A stretch of 64,000 bases of DNA, from sequence record SRR20825006_189, one strand, 5' to 3'. The notes under the pieces were generated by a model, which made no database searches, was not told the DNA's origin, and saw nothing but the letters and a program-made list of their open reading frames with translations. This document shows positions 11,553 through 15,236 of this stretch, piece after piece. Both the position numbers and the translations under genes were made by a program. Numbering within the stretch: the first letter of the stretch is position 1; every line of letters begins with the position of its first letter.

Positions 11553-13015
<1,463 letters not shown>

Positions 13016-13022
13016 AATGATG

Positions 13023-13058
13023 GGCAGTGCCTGATTATGGTTTTGGTCAGGCACTGCC
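13023..13058. terminator. Strong hairpin between convergent hemF and the CBS gene
   Basis: 12-bp perfect inverted repeat GGCAGTGCCTGA / TCAGGCACTGCC; no clear U-tract. Confidence 0.65.
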
Positions 13059-13071
13059 GATTCATACTGAT

Positions 13072-13683
13072 TTAGATATCCACAACATTAAACTGTTCTA
13101 AAGGACTGAATGGACGATCCATTCCATGGACTGCCTTGAAGATATCAACAAAAGTCGTTGGTGTAGCAATTTCCACCGGTATGTGGAGTCGTCTTGCGAT
13201 GTCTGATGCGGAAATAATGCCACGTATTTGATGTTGCTCCTTATCAACAACCAAACAATGTAATGTGCCATTTTTTTGCAATGTATCAAGCACATCGCCA
13301 ATAGTGGCGGTAATAAGCTGCTGATAATCAACCGCTTTTTGTTGAGAGCGGGGAATCATCAAATCACGAACATTGATAGCTTCACGATCGATGCCTTGAT
13401 TCTGCAATATCTGAATATGCTGACCATTGAGTTCCTGCAAACTGATGGTGCCAATCAACTCATTGTTTTCATCAACAACTAATTTTAGCCGGACATGGGC
13501 TTTTTTCATCAGGTAATCAGCTTGTGTTGCCGGTGTATCGGCATCGATGACCAAAGGTAAGTGCTGTTTAAAGTCGGTAAAAATAGTCAGTGCCGGGGAG
13601 TCGGTATTAATTTCGTTAAAATCTTCCGGTTGAATTAGGTGTTCGACATTATCTAATGACATTAAATGTATTTTTTTCATCAT
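13072..13683 (-). CDS. Stand-alone tandem CBS-domain protein
   Basis: HVRLKLVVDENNELIGTIS and HCLVVDKEQHQIRGIISASDI CBS-like repeats. SD GGAG (13690-13687) precedes ATG 13683. Confidence 0.85.
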   Translation of the reverse strand: MMKKIHLMSLDNVEHLIQPEDFNEINTDSPALTIFTDFKQHLPLVIDADTPATQADYLMKKAHVRLKLVVDENNELIGTISLQELNGQHIQILQNQGIDREAINVRDLMIPRSQQKAVDYQQLITATIGDVLDTLQKNGTLHCLVVDKEQHQIRGIISASDIARRLHIPVEIATPTTFVDIFKAVHGMDRPFSPLEQFNVVDI

Positions 13684-13732
13684 AAGCTCCTGAAAGCTAT
13701 TCGCGATAAGAGATAACTTGTGATTAGGCAAG

Positions 13733-14062
13733 TTAAATACGGGGGGGCGTTAGGCAGGAATCAATGATGAAATTGGGGGGGGCTCTAATCGCGACAAGGC
13801 GATAGTGTTGAAAAGGCGCTAAAAGGGGGCGGCATACAGGAGCGCTCACCCAGTAGAAATTCGGTTCAGGGGTCTCCGGAACGGGAGGGATAATATAATT
13901 ATCGCCATCGAATGTATCCGTTAAATCAGGCCGGAAAGAAGTGGCCTCTCGTTCGATGTTGTCTCTTACTGGAAGTTGTGTCTCAGCAGAGGTGACATCA
14001 AAACTAGCTAACAGAACAACTAGACAGAGAATGCGTGAAATAGTCGTTTTCGATCCCTCCAC
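13733..14062 (-). CDS. Small secreted/leader protein with C-proximal RAPP motif (candidate ribosome-arrest peptide)
   Basis: Hydrophobic signal-like segment ILCLVVLLASFDVTSA, Pro-rich linker, ...LVAIRAPP (RAPP codons 13786-13775). GTG start uncertain. Confidence 0.6.
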   Translation of the reverse strand: MEGSKTTISRILCLVVLLASFDVTSAETQLPVRDNIEREATSFRPDLTDTFDGDNYIIPPVPETPEPNFYWVSAPVCRPLLAPFQHYRLVAIRAPPNFIIDSCLTPPRI

Positions 14063-14121
14063 TCGGGGTTAAAACCTACTTCAAGTGAGATAGTGATCTG
14101 ATTAAACGTCGACCCAGTGAT

Positions 14122-14146
14122 GAAAATCGGCTATCAACCGTAGCCG
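14122..14146 (-). terminator. Hairpin/weak terminator right after prfA
   Basis: CGGCTA-CGGTTGA-TAGCCG followed by ATTTTC on the minus strand. Confidence 0.45.
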
Positions 14147-14147
14147 G

Positions 14148-15236
14148 TTAGTTTTCCCCCGACAGTAATGCCAGCTGATCAGCCTGATATTCGTTGATTA
14201 ACGGTTCGATCACCTGATCCAGGTCACCCTCAACAATCTCACTCAGTTTATATAGTGTCAGATTGATGCGGTGATCGGAAATACGACCTTGGGGGTAGTT
14301 GTAGGTTCGAATACGTTCACTGCGGTCGCCGCTGCCGACCAGGGATTTACGGGTCTGCGCCTGTTCGGCTTCCTGCTTCTGCACCTGCTCGGCCATAATG
14401 CGTGATTGTAATACGGACATTGCTTTGGCGCGGTTCTTATGCTGCGAGCGCTCTTCCTGACACTCAACTACGATGCCGGTGGGGATATGCGTGATGCGGA
14501 TGGCGGAGTCGGTTTTATTAACGTGTTGACCACCGGCACCGGATGCGCGGAAAGTATCAACACGAATATCGGCCGGATTGATATCAACTTCGTCGATCTC
14601 GTCGACTTCTGGCAGGATCGCAACGGTACAGGCGGAAGTATGGATCCGGCCCTGAGACTCGGTTTCCGGTACCCGCTGCACCCGATGCGCACCGGATTCG
14701 AACTTCAGTCGTGAATAAGCACCTTCACCGACAATACGGCAGATAATTTCCTTGTAACCGCCGTGTTCGCCTTCCTGAGCATTGATGACTTCCACTTTCC
14801 AGCGGCGCAATTCGGCGTAGCGGCTGTACATCCGGAACAGATCACCAGAGAAAATGGCGGCTTCGTCACCACCGGTACCGGCGCGGATTTCCAGATAGAT
14901 ATTGCGCTGGTCATTCGGATCTTTCGGCAGCAGGAGTTTTTGCAGTGTCAGTTCCAATTCGTCCAGTTTATCTTCTGCCTGTGCCAGCTCCTCTTTGGCC
15001 ATCTCACGCATTTCTGCATCATTTTCTTCCAGCATCAGACGGGCATCATCAATATCGGATAATGTGCCGCGATAAGCATTGAAATTGCTGACAACGGGTT
15101 CTAACTGTGCGTATTCCTGCGATAAACTGCGAAACTTGTTCTGATTCGCCATAGTCTCGGGTTCAGCCAGCAGGCCGGCGATTTCCTCATGACGATCGAC
15201 AAGGGATTCCAGTTTCTGCTTGATCGAGTCTTTCAC
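14148..15236 (-). CDS. prfA: Peptide chain release factor 1
   Basis: GGQ motif (GAGGQHVN), PET tripeptide in [12 protein letters not shown], follows hemA. Confidence 0.98.

Follow-up and report, generated by a model that had tools for sequence, protein, structure and literature searches.

The 64,000-nucleotide stretch of DNA from sequence record SRR20825006_189 that we analyzed, referred to here as the window, carries on its minus strand a small open reading frame (ORF) directly upstream of a gene for a CBS-pair protein that starts at 13683. The small ORF, which we call the leader, encodes an N-terminal hydrophobic, signal-like segment and the sequence ...YRLVAIRAPP near its C terminus, followed by a short tail. 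An earlier reading of this DNA, the original prediction, had proposed that the codons of the putative arrest motif pair over a long range with a stretch next to the initiation region of the CBS gene (helix A) and that a ribosome stalled at R-A-P-P would occlude one arm of that helix and remodel the Shine–Dalgarno (SD) region, as in secM-secA. Our analysis makes it probable that the leader–CBS transcript is a translational switch of the secM-secA type, closed by a different helix, helix B, and not by helix A. The features on which this reading turns are listed below, where P denotes position 13780, expected to be the first nucleotide in the ribosomal P site, and offsets run in the direction of translation.

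13733 to 14062, minus strand: leader ORF, 109 codons in the window frame, with a GTG start.
13072 to 13683, minus strand: gene for the CBS-pair protein, 203 amino acids from the first ATG, matching PF00571 (E=2.8e-15) in two stretches.
13775 to 13786, minus strand: arrest-motif codons AGA GCC CCC CCC (R-A-P-P), read from the sequence.
13764 to 13772, minus strand: anti-start arm of helix B, UUUCAUCAU, at P+8 to P+16, found in the minimum free energy (MFE) fold and in the RNAalifold consensus.
13755 to 13760, minus strand: anti-SD arm of helix B, UUCCUG, at P+20 to P+25, found in the MFE fold and in the consensus.
13687 to 13691, minus strand: Shine–Dalgarno sequence AGGAG of the CBS gene, invariant in seven of seven Methylophaga-type sequences.
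13714 to 13735, minus strand: apical hairpin UAACUUG-loop-CAAGUUA (13735-13729 with 13720-13714) between the helix B arms, predicted with a probability of 0.91–1.0.

Neither Pfam nor NCBIfam searches placed the leader in any family. Read by eye, its N terminus divides into MEGSKTTISR, a hydrophobic core ILCLVVLLASF and DVTSA|ETQ, with AxA-like sites in other lineages. The three homologues of the leader protein that we found each end in RAPP[IH]SS[LF]IPA, with IRAPP lying 7 codons from the end of the leader in these relatives and 13 codons in the window frame. At the position of the leader start (14060-14062), five of six close Methylophaga-type sequences (the window, L001–L003, L061 and L063) have GTG, TTG or ATG, with GGG in L003; L004 diverges at this position. 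A clear SD is missing 5′ of the start codon, and the leader start is therefore uncertain. For the CBS protein, PF00571 is the sole family match, with no NCBIfam family above the cut-off and no relative in the PDB. Its nearest named relatives are from Methylophaga, the protein of Methylophaga sp. OBS4 being 91% identical, and the alignment places the called start in most relatives at the second ATG (13680). If the P- and A-site assignment made for ApdA/ApdP (Morici et al. 2024) is carried over to the leader, a stalled ribosome would be expected to have codon 13780-13778 in its P site, with 13777-13775 occupying the A site.

The MFE structure predicted for 13660-13860 has an energy of −40.2 kcal/mol (z=−2.84), and none of 200 shuffles is as stable. 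It contains helix B in two parts. In B1, UUUCAUCAU (13772-13764) pairs with AUGAUGAAA (13683-13675), and in B2, UUCCUG (13760-13755) pairs with CAGGAG (13692-13687). Over four sequence contexts, the mean pair probabilities are 0.57–0.94 for B1 and 0.58–0.96 for B2, with a spread of 0.42–0.996 for the anti-start arm, and in the predicted free mRNA the SD and the AUG are each unpaired with a probability of just 0.01–0.09. The hairpin at the tip (13735-13714) was also considered as an intrinsic terminator and rejected, as it does not appear in a terminator scan and no U-run follows it. Covariance models from Rfam gave no matches at E≤1 over 13000-14300 on either strand.

Helix B recurs in the close relatives, for which we used DNA from four Methylophaga genomes (L001–L004) and three metagenome contigs (L061–L063). 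Among seven sequences, six of them distinct, 89% of cells are paired in B1 and 100% in B2. RNAalifold recovers helix B alone from the seven sequences, with 14 pairs and 93 of 98 cells paired, each pair being either invariant or changed on one side. The apical hairpin is paired in 97.5% of cells (five distinct sequences, local alignment) and shows one A-U to G-C double change, which 95 of 500 shuffles match with so few sequences. A metagenome scan with the leader alignment yielded three loci, too few for covariation within the close clade.

The sequence immediately around the arrest codons differs among these strains in a way that separates the tail peptide from the RNA beneath it. Two further features are needed here.

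13775 to 13782, minus strand: run of eight C, the length of which varies among public assemblies.
13750 to 13752, minus strand: UAA, the leader stop in the frame of the relatives, out of frame in the window.

The run has eight C in the window and in contigs X1 and X2, GCG followed by five C in L061, L062 and X11, and eleven C in X4; X1, X2, X4 and X11 are contigs from other sequencing runs, of which X1 and X2 are identical to the window and may be where it derives from. Where the window reads GCCCCCCCC, L061 and L062 carry GCGCCCCC. The leader of the window consequently ends as RAPP-NFIIDSCLTPPRI-stop (13735-33), its tail frameshifted relative to that of the relatives, which read RAPP-ISSLIPA-stop and terminate at the equivalent of 13752-50. 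In X4, the three extra C give RAPPP and leave the window's frame in place. The tail is thus read in two frames among the assemblies, and the RNA 3′ of the C run is unchanged. Because the frame of the tail varies over a constant downstream RNA, the pattern fits a role at the RNA level, within strains that are very close to one another, and the sequences point to a tail peptide that may be dispensable, or at least variable. The differences in the length of the C run may reflect strain polymorphism or slippage-prone phase variation. The original prediction had the hairpin covering the leader stop codon; the hairpin is present, and it covers the stop in the window frame, the stop of the relatives lying 17 nucleotides further 5′. 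We also observe a second C run (seven C) at 13741-13749 on the minus strand, between the anti-SD arm and the hairpin, where the relatives have a CCCAAAG-like sequence.

To place helix B in a wider setting, we searched species-representative genomes with an alignment of the CBS protein and obtained 60 loci. At 41 of these, the CBS gene is preceded by an ORF with an R[AG]PP end, defined as at least 40 codons with R[AG]PP within 15 codons of the stop; the genera with such a leader include Oceanospirillum, Pseudohongiella, Aliiglaciecola, Thalassotalea, Colwellia, Neptunomonas and others. The 19 loci that have no qualifying ORF include 13 from Shewanella, one cut by a contig end with RAPP still visible (L038) and L060, which has HAPP. 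An R[AG]PP upstream ORF is missing at all 13 Shewanella loci (L011, L019, L023, L026, L028, L029, L032–L036, L039 and L058). The Shewanella CBS homologues are 43–48% identical, and six of the 13 loci have an upstream ORF 200–250 nucleotides away that encodes an unrelated conserved protein. At L060, the ORF upstream of 2501 is leader-like and ends in ...RDRLMHAPPVLS, with H-A-P-P in place of R-A-P-P.

The 41 loci, together with L061–L063 and the window, form a test set of 45 sequences in 22 lineages. For each, we computed the energy of the duplex that a leader segment forms with the initiation region (−18 to +8) of the next ORF, comparing a lineage's own initiation region with those of other lineages. 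In 18 of 22 lineages, the segment P+6 to P+30, which follows the Pro-Pro codons, pairs better with its own initiation region, by a mean of −3.16 kcal/mol (Wilcoxon p=2.5e-4). Control segments at P−40 to P−16 (12 of 22, −0.64 kcal/mol, p=0.23) and P−70 to P−46 (7 of 22, +0.27 kcal/mol, p=0.82) show no such preference. The duplexes themselves differ in sequence from lineage to lineage, as in GUAAUGCCC:GGGCAUUAC, CACCUCGUUU:AAACGAGGUU and GAAUCCCUGAU:AUCAGGGGAUU. In the six Oceanospirillum sequences, a 9-bp helix joins P+6 to P+14 with positions −11 to −3 of the CBS start, 94.4% of its cells being paired vs 26–46% when the arms are slid against one another; three of its nine pairs are compensatory double changes, a number reached by 14 of 500 shuffles. 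The 20-nucleotide stretch that best complements the initiation region starts at P−12 to P+10 in the majority of members in 14 of 22 lineages, against 3.5 expected. In several lineages the RAPP leader and the CBS gene are separated by another small ORF of 34–76 codons that has an SD of its own (L025:2340, L041:2395, L042/L043:2398, L047:2277 and L051:2400), and there the post-RAPP segment is complementary to the SD of that ORF and not to that of the CBS gene.

These comparisons bear on the alternative that no regulatory RNA structure exists and that the complementarities are by-products of proline, serine and isoleucine codons facing a purine-rich SD. CCN-CCN codons are indeed anti-SD-like, and long-context thermodynamic predictions are noisy. 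The cognate specificity, however, persists when the proline codons are left out and is absent from the control segments, the Oceanospirillum helix carries compensatory changes, and none of 200 shuffles folds as stably as 13660-13860. We consider this explanation extremely improbable. The closing helix is unusually stable in prediction, is conserved in its clade, shows lineage-specific complementarity with some covariation, and lies directly 3′ of RAPP.

We modeled the stalled ribosome by keeping 13792-13765 single-stranded (P site 13780, −12 to +15). Under this footprint B1 is gone, and the predicted accessibility of the AUG changes from 0.01–0.09 to 0.21–0.58 and that of the SD from 0.03–0.04 to 0.02–0.29. 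The footprint costs the ensemble approximately 12–15 kcal/mol vs 6–7 kcal/mol for a mock footprint placed 45 nucleotides upstream, under which the initiation region stays closed. In six relatives, the same treatment takes the AUG from 0.00–0.31 to 0.24–0.40 and the SD from 0.03–0.16 to 0.03–0.35, with the exception of L004, in which the SD closes. Across the family, the initiation region is predicted to become more accessible in 15 of 22 lineages when P to P+15 is occluded (p=0.009). In 16 of 22 lineages, against 5.5 expected, the 16-nucleotide block that opens it best starts no more than 12 nucleotides from the P site. The arm that would truly be occluded by a stalled ribosome in this model is 13772-13764, directly 3′ of the RAPP codons. 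The expectation of the original prediction that a stalled ribosome would remodel the SD region is borne out in part in the model: the initiation region opens partially, with the loss of B1.

Taken together with what is known of other arrest peptides, these results suggest how the switch may operate. In the free mRNA, 13772-13755, a segment of 18 nucleotides that starts 8 nucleotides after the first proline codon of RAPP, pairs with the CBS start codons and SD, with the small conserved hairpin at the tip, as both the folding and the relatives show. With the first proline codon of R-A-P|P in its P site, a halted ribosome would cover approximately −12 to +15 and would keep most of the anti-start arm single-stranded, weakening the closing helix, so that a second ribosome could then initiate on the CBS gene. 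By analogy with known RAPP peptides, the leader would be exported via its putative signal peptide, the pulling force of export would release the arrest, and slow export of the leader would raise CBS synthesis.

The main rival to this switch is plain translational coupling, in which any ribosome that ends at the nearby leader stop opens helix B, CBS output simply tracks translation of the leader, and RAPP is incidental or slows the ribosome at most. The leader stop of the relatives (equivalent of 13752-50) lies directly 3′ of the anti-SD arm, and a ribosome placed there in the model abolishes B2 (0.00); non-arresting ribosomes, too, open such stems transiently (Fujiwara et al. 2024). The block that best opens the initiation region, however, is at the P site and not at the stop codon, and according to Fujiwara et al. 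(2025) proteomes strongly avoid RAPP outside arrest peptides. R[AG]PP moreover keeps its position in 41 of 60 loci from many genera, in leaders that are otherwise barely alignable, and its retention there argues against plain coupling, which we regard as unlikely.

The pairings of the original prediction involve three further elements.

13783 to 13794, minus strand: 5′ arm of helix A, UCGCGAUUAGAG, covering codons GUC GCG AUU AGA GCC.
13701 to 13712, minus strand: 3′ arm of helix A, CUCUUAUCGCGA, present in the window and varying in relatives with no compensation.
13837 to 13843, minus strand: GCUCCUG, an upstream complement of the SD that pairs with CAGGAGC (13692-86) and is found in this lineage alone.

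All four complementarities that had been proposed are in the sequence: helix A, its extension CUAU/AUAG (13805-02 with 13700-13697), GCUCCUG:CAGGAGC and the hairpin. The arms of helix A form 11 Watson-Crick pairs out of 12, with a single U-U mismatch, and a match of this quality anywhere in the 201 nucleotides arises in 5 of 300 dinucleotide shuffles, making it rarer than chance. Part of the match exists because UCGCGA, a self-complementary hexamer that accounts for half of it, is repeated in both arms. Helix A has a duplex energy of −14.4 kcal/mol, or −15.9 kcal/mol with the extension, and GCUCCUG:CAGGAGC one of −11.3 kcal/mol, compared with −16.2 kcal/mol for helix B. In a duplex scan of the initiation region, in which helix A itself falls outside the scan, the GCUCCUG window (−16.3 kcal/mol) and helix B (−15.9 kcal/mol) are nearly iso-energetic. 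Helices A and B cross, and the two are therefore mutually exclusive in nested folds. A pseudoknot holding both was considered and set aside; it finds no comparative support and is beyond nested-fold tools.

In the folding, helix A is only a minor predicted conformer, and it is missing from the MFE fold of 13660-13860. Its pair probability depends on the context, at ≈0.004 in the 201 nucleotides, 0.04–0.05 in 13600-14070, 0.23–0.27 in 13660-13800 and 0.34–0.40 in 13640-13900; across the set of four contexts it ranges over 0.00–0.38 and is minor in three (0.00, 0.04–0.05 and 0.04). The probability of GCUCCUG:SD follows that of helix A (0.0005, 0.035 and 0.36; mean pair probabilities of 0.00–0.36 over the four contexts), such that the two behave as a single alternative conformer, reaching 0.36–0.40 in 13640-13900. 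In the close relatives (seven sequences, six distinct), 72% of helix A cells are paired, eight of the 12 pairs depart solely by unpaired cells, and none of the 12 has changed on both sides. The GCUCCUG column reads GACCCCG, AACACCG, AUCUCCA and GCGUCUU in relatives, facing an invariant SD, and its pairing is not conserved (66.7% of cells paired vs 61.9% after a one-column slide). Helix A is not in the RNAalifold consensus of the seven sequences, and the cognate test of its geometry, in which the arrest codons face the sequence 5′ of the SD, gives no signal (13 of 22 lineages, p=0.27). With an ensemble probability of 0.00–0.40 and no support from relatives, helix A does not stand as a conserved regulatory helix. 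Helix A and GCUCCUG:SD are most likely a strain-group-specific alternative fold of chance origin with no conserved role.

The mechanism of the original prediction, in which helix A and GCUCCUG:CAGGAGC form the functional closed state and the stall at RAPP occludes the 5′ arm, also meets difficulties of geometry. The 5′ arm lies at P−14 to P−3, within the footprint, as that mechanism needs. The 3′ arm, however, ends 9 nucleotides 5′ of the SD, leaving the SD outside helix A, and melting helix A alone would accordingly free nothing. GCUCCUG lies 57–63 nucleotides 5′ of the P site, beyond the footprint of the stalled ribosome, and in the stalled model it captures the SD at 0.89 in one of four contexts and at 0.10–0.14 in the others, which counts against the mechanism. 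Real and uncommon as the complementarity is, we find this model very improbable. The two helices could also be combined into a two-lock switch confined to this strain group, in which helix B shuts the initiation region at rest, a ribosome that runs through the leader melts helix B and lets helix A and GCUCCUG:SD shut the SD again, and only a ribosome parked at RAPP, covering the 5′ arm of helix A, opens it. When a ribosome that has run through to the stop is modeled, helix A and GCUCCUG:SD keep the SD shut at 0.12–0.88; we hold such an arrangement to be a slim prospect. Were it true, the widespread RAPP-leader/CBS module would make a ligand-sensing CBS protein of the cytoplasm responsive to conditions of export or in the periplasm.

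What remains of the original prediction is its principle, a switch of the secM-secA type, with the particular helix being wrong. Its contention that there is support at the nucleotide level independent of the peptide motif also holds, by way of helix B, in the cognate specificity, the Oceanospirillum compensation, the consensus fold and the occlusion test.

Several observations weigh against a switch closed by helix B. The helix is invariant in the Methylophaga clade, which hence provides no covariation, and the tail peptide SS[FL]IPA is conserved there as well, so that part of the nucleotide conservation could be at the level of the peptide. Pro-Pro codons are naturally anti-SD-like, which is controlled solely in the tests starting at P+6. 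The 22 lineages were grouped by hand, from genus and tail similarity, and the P−12 to P+10 window was picked after a related scan result had been seen. Four of the 22 lineages fail the cognate test and seven gain nothing from occlusion. When 90 nucleotides of upstream sequence are included, just 23 of 45 loci have the predicted partner of their initiation region mainly within P+3 to P+32, a result which shows long-context thermodynamic prediction to be unreliable here. A sliding 28-nucleotide footprint scan was noisy as well (14 of 45 loci, with the real site among the top 10 of 38–55 positions in 8 of 14), and it carries no weight in our reading. Opening in the model is incomplete: the SD arm (P+20 to P+25) lies beyond the footprint and B2 persists at 0.03–0.60 in the stalled state. 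Lastly, arrest depends also on residues upstream of RAPP, and the stall at the leader is a predicted one.

The leader–CBS pair is preceded on the minus strand by hemA (16492-15233) and prfA (15236-14148), the product of the latter having PCRF and RF-1 domains. Terminator-like hairpins lie after prfA (14128-14146, minus strand) and between the CBS gene and a convergent coproporphyrinogen-oxidase-like gene (13021-13033, plus strand). With hairpins on both sides, the leader and CBS gene may therefore form a separate transcription unit. A simple scan for a sigma-70-like promoter between prfA and the leader found none, a result that is uninformative.

The arrangement shares a number of features with secM-secA of Escherichia coli, namely a leader with a signal peptide (putative here), an arrest point of the type R-A-x-P at its C terminus, the same direction as the regulated gene, and a downstream SD held in a stem whose other arm is at or beside the stall site. 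It differs in that the target is a cytoplasmic CBS-pair protein and not a Sec component, in that the start codons are paired too, and in that arrest here is predicted. Like ApdA, ApdP and ApcA (Sakiyama et al. 2021; Morici et al. 2024), the leader is a small ORF with an N-terminal hydrophobic, signal-like segment and R-A-P-P a few codons before the stop. Those peptides, however, precede secDF or yidC-type genes, and the leader has no detectable sequence family. More generally, the downstream protein matches PF00571 CBS alone and is not a localization component, unlike the genes controlled by the monitoring substrates of Sec and YidC (SecM, MifM, VemP and ApdA/P). Stalled ribosomes are known to open stems that sequester an SD, the textbook case being secM-secA, and this was established by mutation for uDF_RQH-secDF2 of Alteromonas naphthalenivorans (Fujiwara et al. 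2024). The latter resembles the present system as a gammaproteobacterial upstream ORF with a predicted SD-masking stem-loop. It has another arrest motif and another target gene, and mutations in its stem relieve repression, whereas the case made here is computational.

RAPP-type arrest peptides were first linked to Sec and YidC genes, and the survey of Fujiwara et al. (2025) extended RAPP and RGPP upstream ORFs to genes of many functions. In the source data of its Fig. 4B, the class 'CBS domain-containing protein' is enriched, with 266 RAPP vs 94 AAPP upstream ORFs (11.1-fold, adjusted p 5.9e-103), and an upstream ORF of this class given as an example in the supplement ends in ...QIRAPPSVHRS. 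The main text of that paper makes no mention of CBS, Shine-Dalgarno, stem-loop, hairpin or secondary structure, and as far as could be seen the paper neither tests a member of this class nor describes an RNA structure for it. An RNA switch for the RAPP-uORF (upstream ORF)/CBS class was not found in print, with the supplement of Fujiwara et al. (2025) covered in part, and the sole full text found to combine an arrest peptide with a CBS domain is a work on archaeal hibernation factors. The association of RAPP upstream ORFs with CBS genes is thus already tabulated.

Our findings give the CBS-class RAPP upstream ORFs a concrete and testable RNA mechanism, an element directed against the initiation region immediately 3′ of the stall codons that is diverse in sequence across the family and complementary within each lineage. 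They also illustrate that a long-range helix which looks plausible in a single genome can be misleading unless relatives are examined. If the switch operates as we propose, a small CBS-pair protein in the cytoplasm of Methylophaga, Oceanospirillum, Pseudohongiella, Aliiglaciecola, Colwellia and others would be tied to the status of secretion or of the periplasm.

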